From: Dehalococcoidia bacterium
GTDB taxonomy: Bacteria > Chloroflexota > Dehalococcoidia > SM23-28-2 > RBG-16-64-32
Reading direction: 5' to 3'
Assembly (NCBI GenBank): GCA_963665775.2
Contig: CAXXTF010000002.1
Coordinates: 992,001-1,056,000 of the forward strand
DNA: 64,000 bases
Shown here: positions 22,871-50,933 of the stretch, piece by piece
Position numbering within the stretch: the stretch's first letter is position 1
How the letters are laid out: every line of letters begins with the position of its first letter
Program-made: the position numbers and the translations under genes
Notes under the pieces: generated by a model
Told to the model about the DNA's origin: nothing
The model's database searches: none
What the model saw: the letters and a program-made list of their open reading frames with translations, nothing else

Positions 22871-24001
22871 CTACTCTGGCGCCGCGAACAAGGTCGTAGC
22901 GGGATGATACGCGGACCAGCCGTACCATTCGCTGACGTAGGCGACTACGAAGTCCAGCGCCTTGGCCTCGCCGGCCACGCCGACTCCCGTGATGTTCCAC
23001 GTCGTGTTGGTTACGTCATCACGGGCACGGAAGGGATCGCTGCCAACGAGCTCAAACTGCGCCTCCCGTCCGTCGATCACACGGGAGAAGGCGGTAGCGC
23101 TGTTGCTTTCGGCATCGTAGAAGATGACGATGGGCAGGCCGTCTATCGTGTCATTGACGACGCCGCCTGATTCCCTCAGTTCGAACAACGGGTAGGCCGC
23201 GTAGCTCTCGTCGGTCATGACGCCCAGCACCAGCTCCTCAGCCTTCAGCCGATCGTCTCCGTACAGCAGGTCTTGGCCCGCTCGCGAGTTGGGCATCCCG
23301 ACCTGCACGTCACGATAGCGTGAGCGGAAGGGCGTGTCGTCGGAGAGGACCACTGTATTGGGCTGGAGATCGAGCCACTCCTCCCAGCTGGTGAGTAGGA
23401 TGGGAATGAATTCCATTGTGGCTCCGGTCACCGGGCCCTGTATGGCTTCCCCGTCAAGATGAGACCACACGCTCCCGGTCTCACGGTCGATCATGACCAG
23501 GACGCCTAGCTGCAGGCCGAAAACCTCGAAGGTGTACCTTTGCCCTTCGATTACGGGGTCGAACCCGACCCCCGAACTGCAGCGTATTCAGAAGGTGATG
23601 AGGATGGGCCTCCCATCGAACGAGTCGTTCACGATATGGTGGAAGGTCATCATCCTGATAGGGTAGGCGCGGCTGTCGCCATCGATCGTCACTCCCAGGA
23701 CATGATCGTCGGCCTCAAGGAACGTAGCCTCGGCAGGGGAGATGAATTCCGGGGCGTCTAGAGGGACGAACGGGCTACGGCGCTGATAGCTGGAAGACAC
23801 GTCGTCGCTGTCGGCGACCGCTTCATTCGAAGCCGGCACCGATGGTGTGGGTGTGTCAGGGACGCCAGGGGTGCCCGCGGTGGGCAGTTGATTTTCACCG
23901 GCCTCGGGCGGCGACCCGCAGGCGGCTGCTCCGACCGCCAGCAGCCCCAACAGAAGGACCGAAATCGCGATGCTAGCCTTTGCTCGCCAGTGTCCGCTCA
24001 T
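22871..24001 (-). CDS. DUF3179 family selenoprotein (lipoprotein); in-frame UGA read as Sec
   Basis: ORFs 23588..24001 and 22871..23494 share a frame and are joined across TGA 23588-23590: ILITF-U-IRCSSGVGFDP...GVLVMIDRETGSVWSHL. The UxxC sits where the family has CxxC. Lipobox GAAAC. Confidence 0.82.
23555..23590 (-). promoter_or_regulatory. Putative bacterial SECIS element
   Basis: UGA followed by hairpin GGGGUCG-GGUU-CGACCCC. The G-starting apical loop begins 22 nt after the UGA. Confidence 0.65.
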
Positions 24002-25652: not shown

Positions 25653-25727
25653 CAATACCTCCTGATCGCTTCGCCAGGCCCGGACTTGGCCGACCAAGCA
25701 GCTTCGTCCTCCCGACTGCGAGCACGT

Positions 25728-25768
25728 GGCGCGAGCTTCGACTGCCTATGCACGCGGCAGCCCGAGCC
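25728..25768. repeat. 41-bp direct repeat, copy 2 (overlaps the acyl-CoA dehydrogenase stop)
   Basis: 39/41 identical to 25225-25265, at 503-bp spacing. Confidence 0.85.
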
Positions 25769-26930
25769 CCCTTGTCGTGATGACGTTGTGTTGGACCTCG
25801 ATGCTCCCACCGGAGATCGTCGTGGGTATAGTAGCCAGAAGGTATCGCTCCAACTCCCCCTGGATTTTCGCCCACTTCGATTTAGGCGACAGTGGACCGT
25901 ACAGGCCCAGCAGGTTGACGCCAAAGTTGGCGAGACCCTGATACAGATTCGCGGCCAGCGTCTTGGATATGGATGCCTCATGATTGGCGATCTTGCCCTC
26001 GGTCTGCATCGCGGTCACCCTATAGGCCAAATACCGTCCCGCTTAACTCATAACAGCGAAATCGGCCAGCCGTTGTCGTGCCGCCGGTGGCAACCCCGTC
26101 CCGTCCTTCTTTTCTCTCCTCGCAAAGTCGATGAGGTCGTCCAGCAACCGCTTGGCTGGAGCCCAGCGCTCCATACCGGACCGTTCGAGATCGAGCGTCG
26201 TCATTATCTGATACCAGCCCTGATTCTCGAGCCCGACTAGTTGCTCCGCAAGCAGCCTCACGTTATCGAAGAAGACCTGGTTCAAAGAGTGCTCGCCCAA
26301 CACGTTGATTAAAGGGGTGATGGTGATACCCGGCAGGTCCGTGGGCATCACGAAGGTGCTTATGCCTTTGTGCTTGGGCGCGTCCGGGTCGGTACGGGCC
26401 GCCAGCCAACCGTAGTCGGATCGGTGAGCATCGCTCGTAAAGGTCTTCTGGCCATTGACTATGTAGTAGTCGCCATCCCGGACGGCGCGAGTCTGGAGGC
26501 TACCCAGGTCGGAGCCAGCCTGGGGCTCAGTGAACATCTGGCAGAAGTACAGATCCCCACTCGCGATGCCAGGCAGGTACCTCTTCTTCTGCTCTTCGTT
26601 GCCGTATATCATGATGCTTGGCCCGATGTTGTTCACACCGTTTGAATTGATCCCCGGCACCCGATGATATCCAGTCTCCTCCTTGAAGATCAGCTGCTGC
26701 CAGTAGCTCGCGTTTAGGCCTCCGTACTCCTCCGGCCAGGCTAAAACCAACCATCCTCGGGCACCCAATTGATGCCCAACCGAGCGCGAGAATTCCCGCT
26801 GCTCCGCCGTGTCGTCGGCAAAGCCGGTCCAGTCAGCAGGCAGCGTGTCTTTGATGAAGCTCCGGATCTCTTGGCGAAAGGCCTCGTCCTCTGGGCTCCA
26901 CTGGAATTCCATCGTGTCTAGCTCCTTCAT
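25746..26930 (-). pseudogene. Acyl-CoA dehydrogenase interrupted by an in-frame TAA
   Basis: ACAD motifs (FTEPQAGSDL, NGQKTFTS, GGSIEVQHNVI). ...LADFAVMS*AGRYLAYRV... stays in frame across TAA 26043-26045. Confidence 0.85.
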
Positions 26931-28329: not shown

Positions 28330-28529
28330 GCGGTGCGAATACGGGGCCTGAGGATCGACGGTGCAATGCGGCCTATTAGGGGCCAGCGCGGTGACCACAC
28401 TATGTGTCGATCGTGGCCGTGGTCCGAAGGTGCGCCGCCATCAGCGGTGTAAGTAGGCCTCCGTCTCGGACTCAAGCTCCGGGGTGGCTCGGTCGGGCCC
28501 CTGTATATTAGGTGCCTCTCGGTGATACT

Positions 28530-29478
28530 ATGGCGGTTATGGACGTTATCCGCTGTGAGGAACTCTCCAAGCGTTATGGCAAAATCCGTGCTGTCGACGG
28601 CCTGAACCTAACTGTTGATGAGGGTACGGCGTTCGGATTAATCGGCCCCAACGGTGCTGGCAAGACGACAACCCTCCGCCTGTTCACTGGCCTGACCAAT
28701 GCGGACGCCGGCCGGGTCTGGGTGGCAGGCGAGGAGGTATCGAAAGGCACCTTACAATGGCGGTCAAAGGTGGGCTATCTGCCCGAGTCCCCGGCCTTCT
28801 ACGGCTGGATGACGGGCCGCCAGTACCTTCAGTTCACGGGAGAGCTATACGGCCTTAACTCCGGGGAGACGAAAGTCCGCGCCGAGCAGCTTCTTGAGCA
28901 GGTTAGCCTGACCGAGGCAGCAGACCGAAAGACAAAGGGATACTCGCGGGGGATGCAGCAACGCCTTGGGCTAGCCCAAGGCGTTGCTTAATCGTCCGGC
29001 GGTGTTGTTGCTAGACGAGCCTGCCTCCGCTTTGGATCCCATTGGGCGGCGGGACATGCTGGAGACGTTGCTTGCCCTGAAGGGCCAGACCACTGTCTTC
29101 ATCTCCACTCACATCCTGGCCGACGTGGAGCGCGTGTGTGACCGCGTGGCGATCGTGAATCACGGTAAACTGGTGACTTCAGGCTCTGTCGATCAGCTAC
29201 GCGCTCAGCGACAACAGTCTATCTTTGAGTTGGAGTTCGAGGACGATGCGGCCGCGCTCGCGGGTCAGCTGGCCGAAATGCCGTGGGTGAAATCCACGGA
29301 CAGACTTGAACGAGGTAACCGGCAGGTGTTCCAGGTGCAGGTTATCGATGTCGGCGAGGCGAATCGGGAACTCCTGAGGCTGGTGTACGAGAGCGGGCTG
29401 AACCTGCTGAGATACGAGCTGATCCAGGCCAGCCTTGAGGATGTGTTCATGGAGCTGCTTGGCGAGGAGAATAAGTGA
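28530..29478 (+). pseudogene. ABC-2 transporter ATP-binding protein, frameshifted
   Basis: Walker A GPNGAGKT and signature YSRGMQQR lie in one frame, Walker B LLLDEP in the next. One extra base near 28976-28981 (GCCCAAGGCG vs GCCCAGGCG). Confidence 0.85.
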
Positions 29479-36500: not shown

Positions 36501-37330
36501 CTAAACGCTACCACAGGCTATGATTAGTGTGGCCATCGCCGTAGTCTCCAGGGATGCCGCGGTGGAGCCCGGCCATGGCACGATCGCTTGCGGTGCTGGC
36601 GGCCGGTAGCCGAGAGCGCTATGCGGGCGCACCTCGTTGTAGTTCCGTCGCCACCGCTCGCAGAGGACCTGTGCTTCCAGCACCGTGTCGAACACCTCCC
36701 CATTCAATAGTTCATCACGTAGCTTCCCATTGAACGACTCGATGTAGCCGTTCTCCCAGGGGCTCCCGGGCTCGATATACAGAGTCTGCACGCCTACCCG
36801 CTCTAGCCAGGTCCGGAGCGCACGTGCCGTGAACTCTGGCCCGTTGTCCGAGCGCAGGTAGCCAGGCACTCCCTTGTGAACTCGTCCAGCACCGTCAAGA
36901 GCCGCAGGGGACGGCCGTCGCTGGTGCGGGTAAACACGAAGTCGTAGCTCCAGACGTGGTTAGGCTCAGTCAGCCTGAGCCTAACGCAGGAGCCGTCTGT
37001 CAACCAGAGCCGCCTCCGCTTCGGCTGCTTCGCCGGCACCTTCAGGCCTTCCCGCCGCCAGAGCCGCTCTACCCGCTTGTGGTTCACCCGAAAACCCTCC
37101 TCTCGCAGCAGGGCGGTCACCCGTCGGTAACCGTAGCGCCCGTACTCGGTCGCTAGCTCCACCATCCGCCTCAGCAGCCTCCCTTCATCGTCGGGAGGAG
37201 AACCCCACCGCCGCTGCGTCGATCGCTCCTGCCCCAGGGCCTGGCAGGCCCGGCGCTCCGAGATGACCGCGTGGCCCAACGCATTCCGCACCCAGACCAC
37301 CGCCTGTCGTCTCTTGGCCGGGCTCAGAAG
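36501..37330 (-). pseudogene. IS3 OrfB DDE transposase with internal deletion and frameshift
   Basis: YGYRR, NHKRV, WSYDF and DEFTREC are followed by a jump straight to [10 protein letters not shown] in another frame, then [12 protein letters not shown] and RPHSALGY. Confidence 0.85.
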
Positions 37331-37602
37331 TTTCCCTGCGCCGCCTCCTTCAGGATGGCGTTGTCCAGGGAGAGATCGGCTACCAGCTTCTTCAGCCCCA
37401 GGTTCTCCTGCTCCAGCTCCCGCAGCCGCTTGGCCTGCTCCCTCCTCAGGCCGCCCTACTCCTTCCGCCAGCGGTAGTAGATCTGCTCTGCCACGCCCAG
37501 CTTCCTGCAGACCTCGGGCACAGCCAGGCCCTTAGCCAGCCCGACCTCCGCCTCCCTCAACTTGTTGATGATCTCCTCTGCCGTGTGATGCTGCCTGCCC
37601 AA
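37324..37602 (-). pseudogene. IS3 OrfA with in-frame TAG
   Basis: ...EEIINKLREAE...YYRWRKE*GG...ELEQEN..LKKLVADLSLDNAILKE..QGNF. Stop at 37456-37458. Confidence 0.85.
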
Positions 37603-37869
37603 TCCTTCTGCCCCCTTTCTCTGGCCCAGAACCCCTGATTACTAACATTGGGCCTGGACTCGTTTTCGGGGGCAAGGTCACCGTAGGAGGAATGTGATAC
37701 AAGAACTCCGTTCGCATTGAAGCGGCAACCAGGCGGTGGGCGCATGTTTGCATTTCGTTTGCAAAATGGCCCTCCGGTGATTTGCAGAGCTTCTGGGCAA
37801 GTGCTAAATCGACCTGACTCAGATACGATTTGGGTGCCTCTGGCGGGGTCAGCGGAACCAGGTCGATGA

Positions 37870-39284
37870 TTAGCTAGGGGAGTAAGAGACCGCTCCCTGA
37901 TGGCATTGTGCCTGGGAAGGGCCACGCAGAAGCTGCTGCCCTCTTTGCTGGCGCTCTCCACCCAGATGCGGCCGTTGTGCAGCTCCACCAGGGACTTGGC
38001 GATGGCCAGGCCCAGGCCGAGGCCGGACCGGTCACCGCGATAAAACGGTTCGAAGATGCGCTCCCGGTCCTCCGTGGCGACACCGGGTCCAGAGTCGATC
38101 ACGCTCACGATGACCTCTCCCTTCTCGACACGGCTGCACACCTCGACACGGCCGCCGCGAGGCGTATAGCGCTGGGCGTTGGAGAGGAGGTTAATCAACA
38201 CCTGCTCGAAGCGCAGGCGATCGACCAGGAGAGCGGTGTCGGGCGCGGCCAGCCGTATCTCCAGGGTCTGATGCTTGGCCGCGATGAGGGGCTGGATGAT
38301 GCCCGCAGCGCTGGCGACGATGTCGCCCAGGGTCGCCTCATCTAGCTCAAGCCGAGGTTAAAACTCGTCCTCTCGGGAGACGTTTACCAGATCAGCCACA
38401 AGGCTGGAGAGACGAGAAGCCCCCTTCACGATGTGGCGCACCAGCCGCGTGCGGGTGTCGCTGCCGGCGTCCCTCTCCTCCTCCAGAAGCATCTCAGCCG
38501 CCATCTTTATCGACGTGAGCGGCGTCCGCAGCTCGTGGGAGACGGTCGTCAAGAAATCGCTCTTCATGCGGTTGACCTGCTGTAGGTGATGGGCATGGGC
38601 CCGCTGGCCCTCGTACAGGCGGCAGTTGTCCAGAGCCAGCCCCATGACCATGCCCAGAGCGGCTAGCAACCTCTGATCGCGCGTCTCACCGTTACTTCGA
38701 TCGGCAGCCACGGCCAGCACACCCTCCGGACGCTCGCGGCCGACCAGGGGCACGTAGATTATCCGTTCCCCCTTGCCGAGGCTCTTGAACCAGGGGTCAT
38801 CACTGATCGAGGCCCTGCTTCCCTGCCGCAGCATCTCCTACAGCGAGCGCGGATCTAGGGACACCTGAGGAGCCCGCTCTAGCCATGCCGAGGGAAAGCC
38901 ACAGGCGGCTACGGGAAGCAGGGCCTCCCCATCCTCGCTCAGCCAGGCTACGACGACGGCTTCCGCGCGCAGCCAATGACCAACCAGCTCCGCGCCTCGC
39001 TGGCAGGCCTCGCGAAAGTCGTGGATAGAGGCCAGCTCATAGCCCAGGCGGTGGGGATAGGCGTAGCGGCGGCGCATGCGGTAGTCCCAGCGGGTGACAA
39101 GCTCTATGGCCATATAGGTATAGAGAGCAGCCAACGCTACCGCCAGGCCGGTCTGAAAGCCCGACAGTCCAAGAAGCAGGACGTATACGGGCGTGAGGCT
39201 GAGTATGGTCACCCCGAGCGCCAAAAGGGCCCAGCGCCTTAGAAGGCTGACTTCCCGTACGGGGTCCGAATGGAAATCTACCAT
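37870..39284 (-). pseudogene. Membrane GAF-domain sensor histidine kinase with two in-frame stops (3' end approximate)
   Basis: One frame holds two TM segments, a GAF-like domain, SHELRTPL, NLLSNA, DSGPG and GLGLGL. It is interrupted by TAG 38838-38840 and TAA 38358-38360. Confidence 0.85.
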
Positions 39285-39424: not shown

Positions 39425-40111
39425 CTAGACGGCGACGAACATATAGCCGACACCTCGCTCGCTGACGATGCGTCCGACGGTATCGGGATCGCCCTCTAGC
39501 TTCTGACGGAGGCGGCGGACATACACCTTGAGGTATTCCATCTCATCGGCGTACTCCCTACCCCAGACCTTGGCCAGCAAGGTGCGGTGAGACAGCACGC
39601 GGCCGGCGCTGCGGGTCAAGTGAAAGAGCAGCAGATACTCGGTGGGCGTCAGCCGCACTGGCTGACCGCGGAGGGTCACCTGGCGGCTGGCGTAATCGAT
39701 GCGGAGGTCGCCCGAGTCGAAGACCTCGCCTACGGCCGGGAGCTGGCTCTCGTAACGGCGAAGCACGGCCCGAACCCTGGCCAGAAGCTCCAGGTGGCTG
39801 AAAGGCTTGGTTACGTAATCGTCGGCACCCATCTCCAGGCCACGAACCTTGTCCATCTCGCCATCTCGGGCGCTCACCATGATGATGGGGACATCGGAGG
39901 AGCGCCGGACCTCCCGGCAGACCTGGAAGCCGTCACGATCCGGGAGCATGATGTCCAGCAGGATGAGATCGGGAGACGTCTCCTCAATCAAAGCGAGGGC
40001 CTCGTCTCCATTCTTGGCGGCGATGACCTCAGCCTCAGGCCAGCGCAGGCCGAAACAGAGGTTCACGACCTCGATGACGTCTGGCTCGTCGTCTACTACC
40101 AGTACCTTCAT
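39425..40111 (-). CDS. OmpR/KdpE-family response regulator
   Basis: MKVLVVDDE, LLDIMLP, GADDYVTKPF, winged HTH 'LKVYVRRLRQKL' and 'RGVGY'. Confidence 0.93.
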   Translation of the reverse strand: MKVLVVDDEPDVIEVVNLCFGLRWPEAEVIAAKNGDEALALIEETSPDLILLDIMLPDRDGFQVCREVRRSSDVPIIMVSARDGEMDKVRGLEMGADDYVTKPFSHLELLARVRAVLRRYESQLPAVGEVFDSGDLRIDYASRQVTLRGQPVRLTPTEYLLLFHLTRSAGRVLSHRTLLAKVWGREYADEMEYLKVYVRRLRQKLEGDPDTVGRIVSERGVGYMFVAV

Positions 40112-40276
40112 TGCAGTCCTATCAGGGTCGGGCCCTCTCAAGATATGTAACAGGGCCGGACACACCGTTACAAAGGTAAGATTCCGCATACCCTCAGGTT
40201 GTTACAGGGGTGGCGGTGGCAGTAGACAGACGTAATGTAGCAGCACAGCTTTAACCGTAGTGCGCGGCGACTACTG

Positions 40277-40792: not shown

Positions 40793-41048
40793 TCGTCCGC
40801 CCCCAGACAAACCACATTGGGCCGCCAGCCCACGATTTCTAACTGATGATAGCCCGGCAGCAAACTTCCGGTCAAAGGCGCACCGCGGTTTCGATGCCAA
40901 AACGGCCCCGGCGGGAGCGCGATTGGGCCGCCGTCTTCTCATCGCTGCCCCTTGCGGTCAGCGGCGACGGCGAGTAAGCTGAACCGAAAAAGCCCGTGTA
41001 TGCCACAGAGGGGGGCTGCAATTGTGAGCGCACCCTTACGCTGACGCC

Positions 41049-42332
41049 ATGACCAATCCAACAGACCGACCGTTAGCTGCGCCCGACCTCTCCGACCTGA
41101 CCATCGATGGGATGATCAGGGAGCGTTACGACGGCCGCGACGAGCGGGACATTTTCGCTAAGGCGTACGAGTTTACCCTGGCCGAGCAGGCGCGATCCGT
41201 CCAGCTCTACCCCTTCTTCCAACCGCTAGACAAGAACGACGGCCCAGAGGCCCAGATATACGGTCGCCAGGTCCTTATGCTGGGCTCCAACAACTACCTG
41301 GGCCTGACCCGCCACCCCAAGGTCATGGAGGCGGCCCGTGACGCCATCAGCCAGTACGGCAGCTCCATGACCGGATCCCGCCTCCTCAACGGCAGCACAC
41401 ACCTCCACGAAGAGCTGGAGGAGCGAATAGCCCGCTTCCTGGGCAAGGAAGGGGCCCTGGTGTTCACCACTGGCTATCAGGCCAACCTGGGCACCATATC
41501 GTCGCTCGTCGGCCGACACTCCGTCGCCGTCGTCGACAAGTTGGACCACGCCAGCATCTACGACGGTTGCCGTCTGGCCGACGGCGAGATGATCCGCTTT
41601 CGCCACAACGATGCCGACAACCTCGATTCGGTGCTCAAACGCGTGGACAAGGGGAAGGCCTGCCTGGTGATCGTGGATGGTGTATTCAGCATGGGCGGCG
41701 ACATCGTCGACCTGCCACGAATTGCCGAGGTGTGCCGGCGGCATGGCGCTCGGCTCCTGGTAGACGATGCCCACGCTACCGGAGTCCTCGGCCAGGGAGG
41801 GCGGGGCACCGCCAGCCACTTCGGTATAGAGGACCAGGTAGACCTGATCATCGGCACCTTCTCCAAATCGCTCGCCTCCATCGGCGGCTTTGTAGCCGGG
41901 CCCAAAGTCGTCCTGGAATGGATAAAGCACTTCGGCCGCGCTATGATGTTCAGCGCCAGTCTGCCGCCGGCCTCCACTGCGGCGGCCATGGCCTCCCTGG
42001 AGGTTCTGGAGGAGGAGCCGGAGCTGACGCAGAAGCTGCTGCGGCTGGCCGCCCTCCTCCGGGACGGTCTCCGCCAGATCGGCTTCGATGTCGGCGATTC
42101 CCAGACGTCCATCGTCCCCGTCAAAATCGGCGACGAATACGCCACCGTTCTCTTCTGGAAGCTCCTCCTAGAGCACGGCGTCTACACGAACCCCATCATC
42201 TATCCAGCCGTGCCTATCGGCAACGCGATGCTGCGCACCAGCTGCATGGCCACCCACACCCAGGAACAGATCGAGACGGCCCTGGAGCAGTTCCGAGCCG
42301 TCGGTCGCGAGCAAGGGCTCATCGCCGAGTAG
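41049..42332 (+). CDS. spt: Serine palmitoyltransferase-like alpha-oxoamine synthase
   Basis: LYPFF, GSNNYLGLT, GSRLLNG, TGYQANLG, DHASI, DDAH and the PLP-Lys motif GTFSKSLASIGGF (SPT-type, unlike the BioF/Kbl GTL(S/G)KA). Operonic with bCerS- and CerR-like genes. Confidence 0.75.
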   Translation: MTNPTDRPLAAPDLSDLTIDGMIRERYDGRDERDIFAKAYEFTLAEQARSVQLYPFFQPLDKNDGPEAQIYGRQVLMLGSNNYLGLTRHPKVMEAARDAISQYGSSMTGSRLLNGSTHLHEELEERIARFLGKEGALVFTTGYQANLGTISSLVGRHSVAVVDKLDHASIYDGCRLADGEMIRFRHNDADNLDSVLKRVDKGKACLVIVDGVFSMGGDIVDLPRIAEVCRRHGARLLVDDAHATGVLGQGGRGTASHFGIEDQVDLIIGTFSKSLASIGGFVAGPKVVLEWIKHFGRAMMFSASLPPASTAAAMASLEVLEEEPELTQKLLRLAALLRDGLRQIGFDVGDSQTSIVPVKIGDEYATVLFWKLLLEHGVYTNPIIYPAVPIGNAMLRTSCMATHTQEQIETALEQFRAVGREQGLIAE

Positions 42333-42355
42333 CCGAGAGCGGTACACGAAGGGCG

Positions 42356-43489
42356 ATGACGGCGACCGTAACCTCGGTCGACGGCAAAGGCGACCTGGAA
42401 GCCTTCCTCAGGCTGCCCTGGCGGCTCTATGACGGCGACCCGAACTGGGTCCCGCCCCTGCTGCGGCTCCTCCGAGAAGAGCTCTCGCCACGCCACAACC
42501 CGTTCTTCCAGCATGCCGATGTCCAGCTCTTCCTCGCCAGACGCGACGGTCAGGTAGTGGGCCGCCTCTCCGCCCAGATAGATCACGAGCACAATCGGTA
42601 CCACAAAGAGCGCACCGGCTTCTTCGGCTTCTTCGAGGCGGAGAACGACCCGGAGGTCGCCGCGGCCCTCCTGGGCAGGGCCGAGGAGTGGCTCCGCCAG
42701 CGGGGCATGGACCGGGTGCGAGGTCCCCTCAGCTTCTCCATAAACGGCGAGGTCGGCTTCCTGGTCGAAGGCTTCGACTCACCGCCGATGATTATGATGC
42801 CGTACACGCGGCCCCACTATCTCGACCTGCTCGAGCAGAGCGGTTATGTCAAGGCGCAGGACCTCTTCGCCTGGCGCTGGGAGCGTCAGCCGGTCCCTGA
42901 AGGTCCGGCCCGCATTGTGAAGGAGCTTCGTGAGAGGCCGGAGGTGAAGGTGCGGAGGGCCAACCTGCGCCGCTTCGATGAAGAGATGCACACTATCCTC
43001 GATCTGTTCAACGAGGCCTGGAGCGAAACCTGGGGCTTCGTCCCTGCCACTGAGGCCGAGGCGAAGAAGCTGGCCCGGGAGATCCGTCTCATCGCCGACA
43101 CCAATATCGTTCCCATGGTGGAGATCGACGGCAAGGTAGCAGCCGTGGCCCTCGGCCTCCCCAACCTCAACGAGGCGATCCACGACCTGAATGGCCGCCT
43201 CTTCCCCATCGGTTTCATCAAGCTCCTCTGGCGCCTCAAGGTGCGGCGGCCGAAGAACGGGCGTCTCATCCTTCTGGGGGTGAAGAAGGAGTTCCGCAAC
43301 CGACGCTACGCCGGACTGGCCTATCTCCTCTGCGACGAGATCTATCGCGGCGCCAAGGCGAGCGGCTATGAATGGGCGGAGTTCTCCTGGACACTGGAGG
43401 ATAACCGGCTCATTAACACCATGATCCAGAACGTAGGCTGCGAACGCTACAAGACTTATCGCGTCTACGAGAAGGCTCTGGCGACATGA
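42356..43489 (+). CDS. bcerS: Bacterial ceramide synthase-like GNAT N-acyltransferase (bCerS/YghO family)
   Basis: 'FLRLPWRLY..DPNWVPPL', 'NPFF', 'FFGFFE', 'GPLSFSINGEVGFLVEGF..PPMIMMPY', 'WGFVP', 'PNLNE' and 'SWTLEDN'. The real start is ATG 42356, and the ORF-track extension to 41567 is spurious. Confidence 0.78.
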   Translation: MTATVTSVDGKGDLEAFLRLPWRLYDGDPNWVPPLLRLLREELSPRHNPFFQHADVQLFLARRDGQVVGRLSAQIDHEHNRYHKERTGFFGFFEAENDPEVAAALLGRAEEWLRQRGMDRVRGPLSFSINGEVGFLVEGFDSPPMIMMPYTRPHYLDLLEQSGYVKAQDLFAWRWERQPVPEGPARIVKELRERPEVKVRRANLRRFDEEMHTILDLFNEAWSETWGFVPATEAEAKKLAREIRLIADTNIVPMVEIDGKVAAVALGLPNLNEAIHDLNGRLFPIGFIKLLWRLKVRRPKNGRLILLGVKKEFRNRRYAGLAYLLCDEIYRGAKASGYEWAEFSWTLEDNRLINTMIQNVGCERYKTYRVYEKALAT

Positions 43490-44469
43490 GGGTGCTGGTC
43501 ACCGGCGCCACCGGCTTCCTGGGCTCACACATCGCGGAGCAGCTAGCCAGGGACGGCCACAGCGTCCGGACGTTGGTGCGCCGGAGCAGCAACCGCCGCT
43601 TCCTGGCAGCCTTCCCTCATGAAGAGGCGATAGGAGACGTGACCGACCCCTCGTCTCTGCCCCAGGCCCTGGACTCGGTCGATGTCGTAGTCCACGCCGC
43701 CGGTCTCGTGAAGGCCCGCAGCGCCGCCCAGTTCGATGCCGTGAACGCCGGTGGCACGGCCAACCTGCTGGCCGCCGCGGACGAGGCGACACCCGACCTT
43801 CGCCGCTTCGTCTATATCTCCAGCCTTGCCGCTCATGGCCCCAGCGAGGACGGCCGGCCCCGCCCCGTGGACGCCCCAGCCAATCCCCTCACCGCTTACG
43901 GCCGAAGCAAGCTCCGCGGCGAGGAGCTGGTTGGCGCCTGGAGCGGATCGAGCCGCGCCGTGATCATCCGGCCCGCGACGGTCTACGGCCCACGCGATCC
44001 TGGGCTACTGCCGTTCTTCAGCCTGACTCGCTGGCGGCTCGCCCCGCTGCTGATGGGCGGACGCAATCGCATCTCCATCATCTATGCGGAGGACGCCGCC
44101 CGCGCCATCGCCCAGACCTGCACCGCCGAGGCGGAGGTAGCCGGCAAGACCTATTTCCTGGACGACGGCAACGTCTACTCCTGGCGCGACCTCCTGGCCG
44201 CCGTCGAGGAGGCAGTGGGGCACAGGGCACTCCGCCTCAATTCCCCCCACTTTGCCTTCAATGCCGCCGCCCTGGTCAGCGAGACCTACGGCTTCATCCT
44301 GCGCCGCCCCGTCATGCTGACCCGCGAAAAGGTGCTGGAGATGAGCCAGCCCTACTGGGTCTGCTCCTGCGAGATGCTAAGGCAGGACATCGGCTGGTCT
44401 CCCCAGATCGATATCACAGAGGGAGCGAAGCTGACGGCCCAGTGGTATCGGCAGCAGCGCTGGCTCTAG
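43486..44469 (+). CDS. cerR: NAD-dependent epimerase/dehydratase (extended SDR), ceramide reductase-like
   Basis: TGATGFLG, HAAGLVKA, SSLAA, YGRSK and RPATVYGPRD. ATGA overlap with the bcerS-like gene. Confidence 0.65.
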   Translation: MRVLVTGATGFLGSHIAEQLARDGHSVRTLVRRSSNRRFLAAFPHEEAIGDVTDPSSLPQALDSVDVVVHAAGLVKARSAAQFDAVNAGGTANLLAAADEATPDLRRFVYISSLAAHGPSEDGRPRPVDAPANPLTAYGRSKLRGEELVGAWSGSSRAVIIRPATVYGPRDPGLLPFFSLTRWRLAPLLMGGRNRISIIYAEDAARAIAQTCTAEAEVAGKTYFLDDGNVYSWRDLLAAVEEAVGHRALRLNSPHFAFNAAALVSETYGFILRRPVMLTREKVLEMSQPYWVCSCEMLRQDIGWSPQIDITEGAKLTAQWYRQQRWL

Positions 44470-44486
44470 GCTCTAGAAGTCCCGCC

Positions 44487-45575
44487 CTACCGGCCAACAG
44501 GGGGCTCAGGGGCAGCCGCCTCCAGAGCGGAGGCCTCCCCAGGCCCACCAGCAGGCTTCCGCAGGGTGAGGATATCGGCGGGGCGCAGCCGTAAGCCAAA
44601 CGCCGCCATGGGCCCCGCAACGATGTAGGGCAGGACGAAGAACAGGTGCGCGAAGATGGCGTAGGCGGCGGCTTCCGCTTCCCCGACACCGAAGGCGAGC
44701 AGAAGCCCGGCGATCGCCACCTCGAAGACGCCCAGGCCGGCGAACGTAAAGGGCACCGAGAACGCCACAGCCGCGGCCACCACGACCAGCAAATAGACCG
44801 CCGGCGATATCTCCAGTCCCAGCGCTCGGCCAAAGCAGTAGTACATGAAAGCTTCCAGGAGCCAGGCTGCGTGAGCGCTCCAGCCTATCTGAAGGAGGGC
44901 AGATGGCCGGCGCAACGCCTGTAGTCCGTCCGCGAAGCCCTGGATCTCCCGTCCTACCCAGGCGCGCAGCCGTCCCTGCCCCGCTCGATCCGGCGAGACG
45001 GCCCAGCGCCCAGCGTGTGTTATCAGGTGACGAGCGCTAAAGGCGCCCGCAAGGATGAGCGCCCAATAGCCGATGGCCAGAGGCCATAGCATGGCCGCCT
45101 CCTCAAACAGCAGAAACCCCACCACAATGAAGGTGGAGAAGACGACCACATCCGCCAGCTTCTCGGTGACGATCGTCGCCGCAATGCTGGAAGCGTTGAG
45201 CCCAGTGCGCCTGCGCACAACCTGAACGCGAACGATCTCGCCGACGCGGAAGGGGAGAACGATGTTGGTGGATACGCCCAGCAGGGCCGTGCCGAATAGG
45301 AAAGTCACGCCCACATTTCGCATGGGCCTCAGGAGAGCCTGCCAGCGGATGGCACGGAACCAGTCGGAGGCGATATTAGCGGCGAAGGCCAGAGGCAGCC
45401 AGATAAGGTCAGCCTGCCCGATCTGCGCCCGAACAACGGCCCGGTCAACGCTAAGGAGGAGCGCCGTCAGGAGGCCGCCGGCCAGGGCCAGCTGCACCAG
45501 CAGGCGAAGGAGCGGATACACCCCTCGGTGCAGCCTAGGGGCCCCCTCGGCCGCGATCTCCTTCTGGTACTCCAT
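44487..45575 (-). CDS. Lysylphosphatidylglycerol-synthase TM / flippase-like (UPF0104/AglD-like) membrane protein
   Basis: 'RAIRWQALL', 'NIVLPFRVGEIVR', 'EKLAD' and 'VP...GLGVFE'. Confidence 0.82.
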   Translation of the reverse strand: MEYQKEIAAEGAPRLHRGVYPLLRLLVQLALAGGLLTALLLSVDRAVVRAQIGQADLIWLPLAFAANIASDWFRAIRWQALLRPMRNVGVTFLFGTALLGVSTNIVLPFRVGEIVRVQVVRRRTGLNASSIAATIVTEKLADVVVFSTFIVVGFLLFEEAAMLWPLAIGYWALILAGAFSARHLITHAGRWAVSPDRAGQGRLRAWVGREIQGFADGLQALRRPSALLQIGWSAHAAWLLEAFMYYCFGRALGLEISPAVYLLVVVAAAVAFSVPFTFAGLGVFEVAIAGLLLAFGVGEAEAAAYAIFAHLFFVLPYIVAGPMAAFGLRLRPADILTLRKPAGGPGEASALEAAAPEPPVGR

Positions 45576-45763: not shown

Positions 45764-46396
45764 CTATCGCGCCCGCAGGACGCGCTCGGCGGCGATGGCC
45801 GGGAGGAGGAGGAGAAGGGCCCAGGCATAGCCGCCCAGGATGTCGCTGGGCCAGTGGACGCCCAGGTAAACGTTGGCCGGCCCGTTGAAGAGCAGGACGA
45901 CGAGCGAGGAGAGAGCGAGGGGCCAGCGGGCCGCGGTGGCCAGAGGAAGCGCGAAGGATAAGTACAGCAAGAAACCGTACAGGTAGGTGCCGCTCATAAC
46001 GTGGCCCGACGGGAAGCTAGGGCTGGAGAAAGACGCTCGCAGCTCCACCACCTCCGGGTCCGGGCGCGGCCGGTCCACGAGATCCTTGACCCCGACCTGG
46101 AGGAGAGGCAGCAGGACGAGTGCCGCGGCTAGCAGTACCGCCTGCCGCCGATGCCCCCGAGCCCAGAGCACGAGAGCTACAGCCGCCCCGAGGCCGAGGA
46201 CCACCTCGGTGGCGGTGACGGCCCGGATGGCGTCCGAAAGAGGCTCACCGGGGAAAGCGAGGTCCTGAGCCCAGGTAGCAATGCCCGCGTCTCCAGGCAG
46301 CGTATCGTGGGCAGCAGCCAGGGAGGAGAGGGCCACAGTGAGGCTCAAGAGGACCAACCAGAGCCCGACAGCGATGGTCTGAACGGGCGGCGACAT
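45764..46396 (-). CDS. PAP2 family lipid phosphatase
   Basis: K..VDRPRP, SFPSGH and VYLGVHWPSD. Confidence 0.9.
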   Translation of the reverse strand: MSPPVQTIAVGLWLVLLSLTVALSSLAAAHDTLPGDAGIATWAQDLAFPGEPLSDAIRAVTATEVVLGLGAAVALVLWARGHRRQAVLLAAALVLLPLLQVGVKDLVDRPRPDPEVVELRASFSSPSFPSGHVMSGTYLYGFLLYLSFALPLATAARWPLALSSLVVLLFNGPANVYLGVHWPSDILGGYAWALLLLLPAIAAERVLRAR

Positions 46397-48998: not shown

Positions 48999-50933
48999 CT
49001 AGGGCAGCTGCTCGTGCTTCAGCGCGGCGATGAAGGGGAGGCTACGGAACCTCTGATGAAAGTCCAGGCCGTAACCCACGACGAACTCGTCGGGGACCTC
49101 GAAGCCCACGTACTCCAGCGGCACATCGACGATGCGCCGGGCCCTCTTGTCCAGCAGGGCACACACTAGTATTGAGGCGGGACGCTTGGTATTGAGATAC
49201 TCCAGGATGTGATTGAGGGTCATCCCCGTGTCGACGATATCCTCCACTAGGATGACGTCACGACCCTTGATATTCTCATCCAGGTCCTTCAAGATGCGCA
49301 CCACCGGCGCCCCGTTCACATCGTAGGAGGAGATGGACATGAAGTCCACAATGGTGGGTACGGAGACGTGCCGCATCAGGTCCGCCATAAAGCAGAGAAC
49401 ACCCCGTAAAACACCGATGAGGATGGGCTCCTTGCCCGCGTAGTCACGGCTGATCTGCGCCCCCAGCTCCCCAACGCGCTGCTGGATGCGATTGGCGGTT
49501 ACCAGCACACGGCCGATTTCCGGAACCTGGTCCGGCGAGAGGGGGCCGTAGCCGTATTTGAGTAGAAGACGCAGGTAGTCGCGCTTCTTCAGCAGGATTA
49601 TATTGGTCTCCGGATAAAGCTCCTTGAGTAGCCTCATCTTGCGGTTCTTCTCTGCCGTGAGACCGGTCTTCAGGGTTGTGAGTTCCACGTACATGTTCAC
49701 GTCCGGCAGGTAGAAGTCCGGCGTGAAGGCCTCGGTGACCCGCCCGCGCTCCTGGCGCAAAGGGAAAGAACGGGGCTCGTAGTGCCAGTCGATACCGTAG
49801 AAGTCCAGGATGCGGGCGAACTCATACTCCGCCGGATGGGCGAAGGGCGGGGGTACCTCACCTTGCGGCGCGCCGGTAATTGGTGCCGGGAGTCGAGCCC
49901 TAGCGACCGGAGGACTAGGGCGGCGAGCCTCTGAGGCAGCCGCCTTCGGGACAACGACGTCGGCAGCGGCTTCCGGCGTCCGGCGACGCTGGCGGACGCC
50001 CCGCTGGCCACCAGCAGCCGCTTCGGGCGACGGCTCAGCAACCGCCGGACCGGCAGCCACCGGTTTAGGCGTCTCCTCCTTCTTCCTCCGACGCCCCCGG
50101 CTGGTGCGCGACGGCGCACGCTCCTCGACTTCCGCGACGGGAGCGGGAGTATGGAGAGCAATCGTCGGCACCGGCGAGGGAGCGGGCTCCGCCCCTGCCG
50201 CCTCCGAGGACCCACGATGACGGCGTCCTCCCCGACTACCCCGACGACGCTTCGGCTGCGCCTCTTGTTCGACGGGGGCGCCGGTATCCTGGGGCTGTGG
50301 CGCACGCTCCTCGACTTCCGCGACGGGAGTGGGAGTATGGAGAGCAATCGTCGGCACCGGCGAGGGAGCGGGCTCCGCCCCTGCCGCCTCCGAGGACCCA
50401 CGATGACGGCGTCCTCCCCGACTACCCCGACGACGCTTCGGCTGCGCCTCTTGTTCGACGGGGGCGCCGGTATCCTGGGGCTGTGGCGCACGCTCCTCGA
50501 CTTCCGCGACGGGAGTGGGAGTATGGAGAGCAATCGTCGGCACCGGCGAGAGAGCGGGCTCCGCTCCTACCGCCTCCGAGGCCCCACGATGACGGCGTCC
50601 TCCCCCGCTACCCCGGCGACGCTTCGGCTTCGCCTCCGGGGCCGACGGCGCTTCGGAGTCCTGGACTTGAGGCTGCCGTGGCGGGGTGTCCTGAGAATAC
50701 GCCGGAGCAGCCTCGGTAGGCGCCCCAGGCTGGTTGTGCCGGCGGCCGCCGCGCGCACCCCCACGTCGCCTGGGCTGCGGCTCAGATGGGGCTGCCGGCG
50801 CCGACTCGGGCAGCGCCGGCGGTGGAAGAGGAGGAAGGACGGGGTGACCTCTACGAGAAGCCAGACCTCTGATATCAGGGGCGGCGCTGGCGCCTCCCAC
50901 CGTCTCTATCGGATTATTAGTGGCACGTGCCAT
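48999..50933 (-). CDS. hpt: Hypoxanthine phosphoribosyltransferase fused to a PD-(D/E)xK-like domain and a disordered Arg/Gly/Pro-rich N-terminus
   Basis: C-terminal HPRT (VLRG...FMADL, VEDIVDTGMT, FVVGYGLD). Middle domain 'E.EFARILDFYGI.W.YEP..F...FTPDFYLP...YVELTT'. N-terminal repeats. Confidence 0.88.
   Translation of the reverse strand: MARATNNPIETVGGASAAPDIRGLASRRGHPVLPPLPPPALPESAPAAPSEPQPRRRGGARGGRRHNQPGAPTEAAPAYSQDTPPRQPQVQDSEAPSAPEAKPKRRRGSGGGRRHRGASEAVGAEPALSPVPTIALHTPTPVAEVEERAPQPQDTGAPVEQEAQPKRRRGSRGGRRHRGSSEAAGAEPAPSPVPTIALHTPTPVAEVEERAPQPQDTGAPVEQEAQPKRRRGSRGGRRHRGSSEAAGAEPAPSPVPTIALHTPAPVAEVEERAPSRTSRGRRRKKEETPKPVAAGPAVAEPSPEAAAGGQRGVRQRRRTPEAAADVVVPKAAASEARRPSPPVARARLPAPITGAPQGEVPPPFAHPAEYEFARILDFYGIDWHYEPRSFPLRQERGRVTEAFTPDFYLPDVNMYVELTTLKTGLTAEKNRKMRLLKELYPETNIILLKKRDYLRLLLKYGYGPLSPDQVPEIGRVLVTANRIQQRVGELGAQISRDYAGKEPILIGVLRGVLCFMADLMRHVSVPTIVDFMSISSYDVNGAPVVRILKDLDENIKGRDVILVEDIVDTGMTLNHILEYLNTKRPASILVCALLDKRARRIVDVPLEYVGFEVPDEFVVGYGLDFHQRFRSLPFIAALKHEQLP
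50113..50630. repeat. 186-bp (62-aa) tandem repeat, about 2.75 copies, inside the hpt fusion
   Basis: CGCACGCTCCTCGACTTCCGCGACGGGAG recurs at 50115, 50301 and 50487. Confidence 0.92.

Follow-up and report, generated by a model that had tools for sequence, protein, structure and literature searches.

The three co-directional genes at 41049–44469 (+) of a 64,000-nucleotide stretch of a Dehalococcoidia genome very probably form one operon for the ceramide backbone, predicted to follow the bacterial, Caulobacter-type route. The stretch (the window, meaning the whole of the DNA analysed) is C2:992001–1056000 of a genome of 2.35 Mb (two contigs, 91% complete) and contains the housekeeping genes infC, rplT, pheT, aroK/aroB and moeA. 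We detected three intact open reading frames (ORFs), all on the forward strand: an alpha-oxoamine synthase (AOS) of the serine palmitoyltransferase (SPT, gene product Spt) type (41049–42332, 427 aa), a tandem-GNAT N-acyltransferase of the bCerS/YghO type (42356–43489, 377 aa, P0001) and a CerR-like extended short-chain dehydrogenase/reductase (SDR), putatively an NAD(P)-dependent 3-keto reductase (43486–44469, 327 aa). The AOS and GNAT genes are separated by 23 nt, and the stop of the GNAT gene and the start of the SDR gene overlap by 4 nt (ATGA), as read in the sequence. The GNAT frame is open 5' as far as 41567, and its start was assigned to the ATG at 42356, because the alignments of its relatives begin at residues 1–5. 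An initial annotation of this DNA had described three co-directional, tightly coupled genes with no acyl carrier protein (ACP) or acyl-ACP synthetase among them, and the coordinates, the gap and the overlap are all as it gave them. There is no space for a further gene inside the operon, and its flanking genes encode a DUF3090 protein (upstream, divergent) and an LPG_synthase_TM protein (downstream, convergent).

The AOS matched the Pfam family Aminotran_1_2 (226.8 bits), and two Spt models headed its NCBIfam ranking (481 bits for SPT-CFB and 426), followed by bioF (395), BioF/Kbl (392), Kbl (376) and ALAS (266), every one of these scores being under the curated cut-off of its model. The ranking against solved structures was similar in order, with Sphingobacterium SPT first (383 bits), then Sphingomonas SPT (315), Thermus BioF/KBL (280), cysteate-C-fatty acyltransferase (263) and E. 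coli BioF (209). The motif GTFSKSLASIGGF is present, and its lysine K273 aligns with the pyridoxal phosphate (PLP) lysine K265 of Sphingomonas SPT; likewise H167, D239, H242 and R396 align with H159, D231, H234 and R390. We take these SPT residues to be catalytic and the arginine to bind the carboxylate. The aligned residues indicate an active AOS, not serine specificity, and a residue diagnostic of serine specificity was sought in the SPT alignment without any defensible candidate.

The phylogeny places the AOS among the Spts. The maximum-likelihood tree (IQ-TREE, 51 rows) was built from the AOS encoded close to GNAT homologues together with every AOS paralogue in five genomes, a sampling biased to GNAT-linked genes; five duplicate rows and all matches with fewer than 300 aligned residues (L020 and L087 included) were left out. 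Its references carry labels from NCBIfam cut-offs, not from experiment, with 35 of the 50 non-window sequences scanned. The window AOS lies inside a 13-row Chloroflexota clade (support 99/95, starred), the sister of which is a Polyangiaceae/Sorangium clade (100/96, starred), and these two group, less firmly (94/87), with the alphaproteobacterial Spt clade. All three lie, along with the CFB-like sequences, in a clade of 38 rows (98/93, starred) that also has all seven references over an Spt cut-off (L028, L060, L061, L068, L076, L078, L095); the references over the cut-offs for Kbl (L094, L098), BioF (L091), BioF/Kbl (L092) and ALAS (L099, L100) are outside it.

Two myxococcal lineages in this data set showed other arrangements. 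The Labilithrix AOS near a GNAT-SDR pair (L022, L026) is not Spt-like and joins a BioF-like clade, below the bioF cut-off. The Sorangium genome (L093) has a Spt-like gene (L101) megabases from its GNAT-SDR pair (L045).

We consider it very improbable that the AOS is a BioF or Kbl of primary metabolism, lying by chance beside an unrelated acetyltransferase and a sugar epimerase. The strong bioF and BioF/Kbl scores (395 and 392 bits) could be read in this way, yet the former is below the bioF cut-off of 426, and in the tree a split with starred support parts the AOS from the references for Kbl, BioF and ALAS. In favour of this reading, the AOS is the only one found in the genome (no second at E ≤ 1e-10), and the SDR takes the Pfam name Epimerase and HpnA/OleD-type NCBIfam names; the genome search, however, gave no match over the BioB cut-off (the best had 61 bits against 225), and the AOS shows linkage, fusions and co-occurrence with the GNAT across phyla (see below). 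A biotin role is unlikely because neither a second AOS nor a BioB above cut-off was found.

It is also unlikely, if less so, that the same enzymes produce another amino-lipid, with an AOS that takes alanine or glycine (1-deoxy-type bases) or cysteate (capnine-like sulfonolipids) and a GNAT and SDR that finish an N-acylated, reduced non-canonical product. The conserved residues do not reveal the substrate choice of the AOS, which is under the curated Spt cut-offs, and the cysteate-C-fatty acyltransferase (PDB 28eh) is its clear relative at 263 bits; nevertheless, the SPT structures are 120 bits above that enzyme (383 vs 263), and the AOS is inside the clade of over-cut-off Spts. Abundant 1-deoxy-ceramides and sulfated forms in Chloroflexota-rich waters, described in the main text of Ding et al. 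(ISME J 2024, PMC11334938), would fit such a product, while the linked GNAT and SDR, the spt partners in Caulobacteraceae and E. coli B, speak against it.

The second gene gave a weak Pfam match (Acetyltransf_1, 30.4 bits) and, in an ESM Atlas search, generic names only, such as 'GNAT N-acetyltransferase'; the family comprises 8184 representative clusters at E ≤ 1e-3 and 1604 at E ≤ 1e-30. The GNAT is 42% identical over the full length to YghO of E. coli BL21 (E 3e-105). In BL21(DE3) yghO is divergent, beside genes for a fatty acyl-AMP ligase, an epimerase-family SDR, an ACP and Spt, and because yghO of E. coli B adjoins the spt locus and is alike over the full length, the label YghO/bCerS-type is right. 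Identity to spt-linked Caulobacteraceae homologues is 46–49%. In the Caulobacteraceae locus L078 an AMP-ligase-like ORF is followed by an SDR, a 385-nt gap, spt and, 2.3 kb further, the GNAT (46% identical), and this GNAT as the query returned only the window GNAT from the host genome, making the two reciprocal best hits.

The AlphaFold2 model of the protein has two GNAT domains (pLDDT 95.6, pTM 0.92), and Foldseek gave tandem-GNAT proteins as its best matches (2wpw, the clavulanate CBG protein; 5kf1; 7q3a; MshD), with TM ~0.6 and E down to 3e-15. The C-terminal half contains RYAGLA, of the RxxGxA type, which is presumably the CoA-binding motif of GNAT proteins. Homologues were found fused to further domains: P0171 (780 aa) and P0242 (777 aa) combine Aminotran_1_2 with GNAT, P0239 is a truncated form of such a fusion, P0209 joins a fatty-acid hydroxylase domain to GNAT, and P0122 is a tandem GNAT copy.

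The third gene encodes a protein of the Pfam family Epimerase (126.7 bits) that begins directly with a Rossmann motif (MRVLVTGATG...), with GATGFLG at residues 7–13 (TGxxGxxG type) and YGRSK (YxxxK); in NCBIfam it drew weak matches of a generic kind (HpnA 130 bits, OleD 113 bits). When two Caulobacteraceae genomes were searched with the SDR, the top match in each was the SDR beside spt, at C52:19799–20707 of G041 (123 bits, the next 75) and at C14:404527–405426 of G044 (118 bits, the next 68). Reverse searches with the Spt, GNAT and SDR of L078 each returned the corresponding operon gene as the best in the host genome. The SDR is 50% identical to the SDR located after the GNAT in Sorangium and 30% identical to the SDR of the E. 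coli B spt cluster (E 3e-35).

The initial annotation had named an SPT-type AOS, a YghO/bCerS-type GNAT and a CerR-like extended SDR, and these three assignments are borne out by the score ranking, the tree with its model-labelled references, the reciprocal best hits, the synteny across phyla and the fusion proteins. The reciprocity of the bCerS- and CerR-type matches was established with homologues from Caulobacteraceae metagenome-assembled genomes (MAGs).

The relatives of the GNAT were collected with a 12-sequence alignment (A2), one genome per species, giving 583 relatives, and linkage was assessed in the best 80 of them. These 80 came from Dehalococcoidia, Chloroflexia, Anaerolineae, Myxococcota (Sorangium, Labilithrix), Caulobacteraceae (including Phenylobacterium), Gemmatimonadota and Zixibacteria, among other groups. 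An AOS lies no more than 6 kb from the GNAT at 35 of the 80 loci, and an SDR homologue does so at 31. The order AOS-GNAT-SDR recurs at every locus of the same family, 7/7 with short and 6/6 with long flanks (13/13, one genome, G005, being counted in both sets), so that the arrangement is not due to chance. The GNAT was detected in 22 of 24 other genomes of this family (f1), the two misses both belonging to genus g17 (87% and 96% complete), and in none of 16 genomes belonging to other families of its order.

Within the class, 301 evenly sampled genomes were searched for the GNAT (E ≤ 1e-30) and the AOS (E ≤ 1e-60). The GNAT was found in 48 genomes and the AOS in 70, the latter with a clear break in E-values from 1.3e-124 to 5.1e-100, above which 46 genomes lie. 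Both the GNAT and a Spt-like AOS were present in 45/301 genomes, or 45 of the 48 GNAT-positive ones; G105, G174 and G318 had the GNAT only (G318 with a truncated Spt-like fragment at a contig end) and G300 the AOS only. The trait follows families (f28 17/17, f10 5/5, f7 3/3, f25 3/3, f11 0/17), and the counts are not independent because the genomes are related. Other families of the class contributed nine loci, four with the three genes side by side (L120, L121, L123, L125) and five with the GNAT by itself. The GNAT and AOS genes of f28 are about 1 Mb apart, resembling the unclustered Bacteroidota genes reported in the main text of Ding et al. (PMC11334938).

The retention bears on a further alternative, that the cluster makes a low-abundance signal or specialised metabolite (an N-acyl amino-ketone or amino-alcohol) instead of a bulk membrane sphingolipid. 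We regard this as quite improbable: vertical retention across whole families (f1 22/24, f28 17/17) is typical of a core lipid trait, even though genes for head groups or transport are not reliably linked to the operon. AOS enzymes are known to make autoinducers as well, and CqsA-type matches were obtained (134 bits in PDB, 217 bits in NCBIfam), at scores far under those of SPT. Tandem GNATs occur in secondary metabolism, for instance in that of clavulanic acid (2wpw), while the homologous Caulobacter cluster makes membrane ceramide (PMC11087976).

For the ceramide route we propose that the Spt-like PLP enzyme would condense L-serine with a long-chain acyl thioester to 3-ketosphinganine, that the YghO/bCerS-type tandem GNAT would N-acylate this intermediate, and that the CerR-like SDR would then reduce the 3-keto group. 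The product is most likely dihydroceramide, made in the cytoplasm. The substrates, the order of the second and third steps, the acyl donor and the final lipid are predictions here, built on gene identity, conservation, linkage and co-occurrence, which are established.

All three steps would take place at the cytoplasmic face of a single membrane, a location proposed because no outer-membrane markers were found in the host. Neither Omp85 nor LpxC was found in the 91%-complete genome, and the same searches matched 7 and 4 control genomes, respectively, all diderms by our own classification. The closest GNAT homologues are labelled 'Dehalococcoidia bacterium' or 'Chloroflexi bacterium', and the same-family genome G019 (locus L011) is labelled Dehalococcoidia bacterium. 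These data are consistent with a monoderm Dehalococcoidia host, as had been proposed from the window alone, within the limit that 91% completeness sets to the absence of markers.

The acyl thioester is plausibly acyl-CoA. This donor is suggested because no dedicated ACP or acyl-ACP synthetase is linked to the operon: neither an ACP nor an AMP-ligase gene was found in it or beside it, the pattern of AcpR/AasR-linked Spts being absent. The AOS is closest to the Bacteroidota/Myxococcota type by scores and tree; Bacteroidetes Spts use acyl-CoA, and those of alpha-, beta- and gammaproteobacteria prefer acyl-AcpR made by AasR (PMC11324152, PMC9386255). The genome has two PP-binding matches, an 89-aa ORF about 61 kb downstream, which is probably AcpP, and one on contig C1, and six AMP-binding matches. 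The C1 match lies in an 872-aa open frame (C1:692626–694404, −) that has an AMP-binding domain as well and may represent a fusion of an acyl-AMP ligase with a carrier protein.

Exact-match metatranscriptome contigs cover parts of the AOS gene (41285–41458, 41411–41571, 41621–41807, 41809–42028) and of the GNAT gene (42986–43144), one bridges the GNAT/SDR junction (43176–43523), and another covers the 3' end of the SDR gene (44422–44655). They come from three runs of one study, with 5–19% of sampled words, and stretches that have no contigs are uninformative. They give a weak hint of operon transcription.

Several points weigh against the ceramide assignment. The AOS is below every curated Spt cut-off (NF047600 481<640, NF047599 426<500, NF047603 345<670), as are all of the other cluster-linked AOS of Chloroflexota and Myxococcota that were scanned. 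Its catalytic residues are common to all AOS enzymes and are therefore no proof of serine specificity, and Arg378 of Sphingomonas SPT is replaced by Ile, yet this position is Val in Sphingobacterium SPT. The GNAT matched no NCBIfam model and no PDB sequence at E ≤ 1, and the SDR is only 30–38% identical to proteobacterial spt-linked SDRs (35–38% for Caulobacteraceae). The comparison with Caulobacter bCerS and CerR ran through the Caulobacteraceae MAG homologues, not through C. crescentus CC_1154 and CC_1164 themselves. Caulobacter CerR is periplasmic (PMC11087976), and the host here probably has no periplasm. The hint of transcription is weak because RNA contigs may be DNA carry-over, and the literature searched contained no sphingolipid measurement from cultured Chloroflexota.

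The history of the cluster was addressed with the AOS tree and a quick-search GNAT tree of 98 rows, both unrooted, which do not give the direction of transfer. The window GNAT belongs to a 21-row Chloroflexota group (SH-aLRT 92), and this group, the Pseudomonadota (including YghO and Caulobacteraceae) and the Myxococcota form a three-way split within a 70-row clade (SH-aLRT 99, starred). Two Anaerolineae GNATs and those of the Dehalococcoidia families f7 and f10 are in other clades, the Anaerolineae proteins falling apart from the Dehalococcoidia/Chloroflexia lineage that holds the window GNAT. The closest neighbour of the Chloroflexota clade in the AOS tree is Myxococcota. The trees are consistent with a cluster that moved as a unit and entered the Chloroflexota more than once; multiple acquisition is suggested because Anaerolineae and two other Dehalococcoidia families hold GNATs of different clades.

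A broader picture can be drawn tentatively, although as a whole we hold it to be doubtful. A monoderm Dehalococcoidia lineage would use ceramide-type sphingolipids as real membrane lipids, made wholly in the cytoplasm by a compact, acyl-CoA-fed spt-bcerS-cerR operon. This operon would have travelled as a unit, the closest non-Chloroflexota relatives of all three genes being Myxococcota (Polyangia), with more than one acquisition by Chloroflexota, and the linked LPG_synthase_TM protein might be the flippase still missing from the bacterial pathway. If this were true, sphingolipids would be a membrane trait that does not depend on an outer membrane, and Dehalococcoidia would supply some of those found in sediments.

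The gene downstream of the operon (44487–45575, −, convergent) encodes a flippase-like membrane protein of the LPG_synthase_TM family (Pfam PF03706, 129 bits), a possible, weakly supported accessory. Of the six long-flank loci of the family, two (L114, L116) have a homologue near the operon, as does L007; L123 has one at a greater distance, and none was found in the remaining flank loci. The functional tie to the operon is speculation and is kept as such because the gene recurs in a minority of loci. A second lipid-related membrane gene 3' of the operon, also on the opposite strand, encodes a PAP2 phosphatase (45764–46396, −); as an accessory candidate it was dropped, with a homologue in 0/15 long-flank loci.

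The presumed promoter region of the operon is the 106-nt intergenic region at 40943–41048 (+), common to the divergent DUF3090 gene. It was placed by position only because a sigma-70 consensus scan gave no promoter-like site on the + strand of this region; a terminator after the operon was not found either, and the match counts in these scans were about those expected from shuffled sequence.

Other genes of the window are interrupted. A sensor histidine kinase is split in three ORFs (37557–39284, −), an unassigned N-terminal part, GAF/HisKA and HATPase_c, downstream of its OmpR-type response regulator (39425–40189), and an adjoining IS3-type transposase (HTH_21/rve/rve_3; 36501–37300, −) is in two overlapping ORFs; both may be true pseudogenes or assembly frameshifts. 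Further split genes encode a DUF3179 protein (22874–24001, −, two ORFs), an acyl-CoA dehydrogenase (25655–26930, −, the main ORF having no C-terminal domain) and an ABC ATPase (28512–29475, +, ABC_tran and DrrA C-terminal domain separate). Such a number of broken genes within 64 kb points to possible indel errors in the assembly; no break affects the three genes of the operon.

A 644-aa ORF (48999–50933, −) ends in a phosphoribosyltransferase (HPRT-like) domain (residues 481–624), preceded by a long Pro/Arg/Ala-rich region with 2.8 copies of a 186-nt unit, 97% identical (50113–50636). The combination of this repeat region and the HPRT-like domain is an unusual fusion for a purine-salvage enzyme. 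The G+C content shows a steady rise over the window (1–64000), with values of about 0.60 at its left end and 0.70 at its right.

Bacterial sphingolipids have long been tied to diderm Bacteroidota and Proteobacteria, where they reside in the outer membrane. In Ding et al. (PMC11334938), Black Sea metagenomes were searched with Spt, bCerS and CerR, and a 'Spt-like' clade was defined by co-location with bCerS and CerR; its main text gives Spt-like proteins in 218 Chloroflexota MAGs, of 1271 MAGs in 38 phyla, and names Chloroflexota as newly identified potential sphingolipid producers. The claim is repeated for sediments in PMC12619533, and PMC11087976 cites earlier work in which the pathway was predicted in some Gram-positive organisms. 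The initial annotation knew of no such report in this lineage and held that membership in a known sphingolipid-producing phylum would remove the novelty. The novelty does fail for the phylum, since Chloroflexota were already covered by Ding et al. and PMC12619533, and stands in part for the class, Dehalococcoidia not being named in the main text of Ding et al. Our literature search on sphingolipids in Dehalococcoidia returned no paper on the subject, judged by title.

Since publications already cover the pathway, its broad distribution across phyla and its occurrence in Chloroflexota, no new category is opened. The conserved and possibly transcribed operon supports the proposal, drawn from metagenomes, of a Chloroflexota contribution to the sphingolipid pools of the environment and extends it to a second class, adding a compact operon architecture and an estimate of distribution (the 45/301 sampled genomes). 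A minimal three-gene, ACP-independent cluster would be easy to express and test, and it raises the question of what ceramide does, and where CerR acts, in a cell that has no periplasm.

Compared with the known systems, the AOS resembles the capnine/sulfonolipid enzyme (PDB 28eh) in the predicted condensation of an amino acid with a fatty acyl thioester, followed by a reductase, and differs in its score, that enzyme being 120 bits lower than SPT. The Sphingobacterium multivorum SPT (PDB 8guh, 3a2b) is the best-scoring solved relative (383 bits, residues 38–418) and likewise has no linked ACP and a hydrophobic residue at the position of Sphingomonas Arg378. Unlike the Bacteroidota-type Spt, the AOS is below the CFB-type cut-off (481<640) and has an N-terminal extension of about 37 residues, and the three genes, unclustered in Bacteroidota by the account in Ding et al. 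(PMC11334938), form an operon here. The Chloroflexota MAGs of that study belong to the same phylum, and their Spt-like AOS are often co-located with bCerS and CerR homologues; its main text names the class Anaerolineae and has no occurrence of Dehalococcoidia, MAGs of which could be listed in its supplementary tables.

The locus of E. coli B and enterotoxigenic E. coli (NC_012971; PMC9386255) is alike in its GNAT (42% identical), SDR (30%) and Spt (43%), and differs by a rhodobacterial ACP, an acyl-AMP ligase and the divergent yghO; E. coli K-12 has lost spt from its gene set and retains a mere remnant of yghO. The Caulobacter crescentus pathway consists of Spt (CC_1162), bCerS (CC_1154) and CerR (CC_1164) together with AcpR and AasR (PMC11324152, PMC11087976). 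The operon differs from it by its compact, translationally coupled spt-bcerS-cerR arrangement, with no dedicated ACP or acyl-ACP synthetase linked, by identities of only 46% (Spt), 46% (GNAT) and 35% (SDR), and by a host in which no outer-membrane markers were found, CerR of Caulobacter being periplasmic. In common with Caulobacter it has the same three enzyme families and the same proposed chemistry of condensation, N-acylation and 3-keto reduction; Caulobacteraceae homologues are the reciprocal best hits of all three operon genes, and the gene set of their locus L078 resembles the published Caulobacter set.

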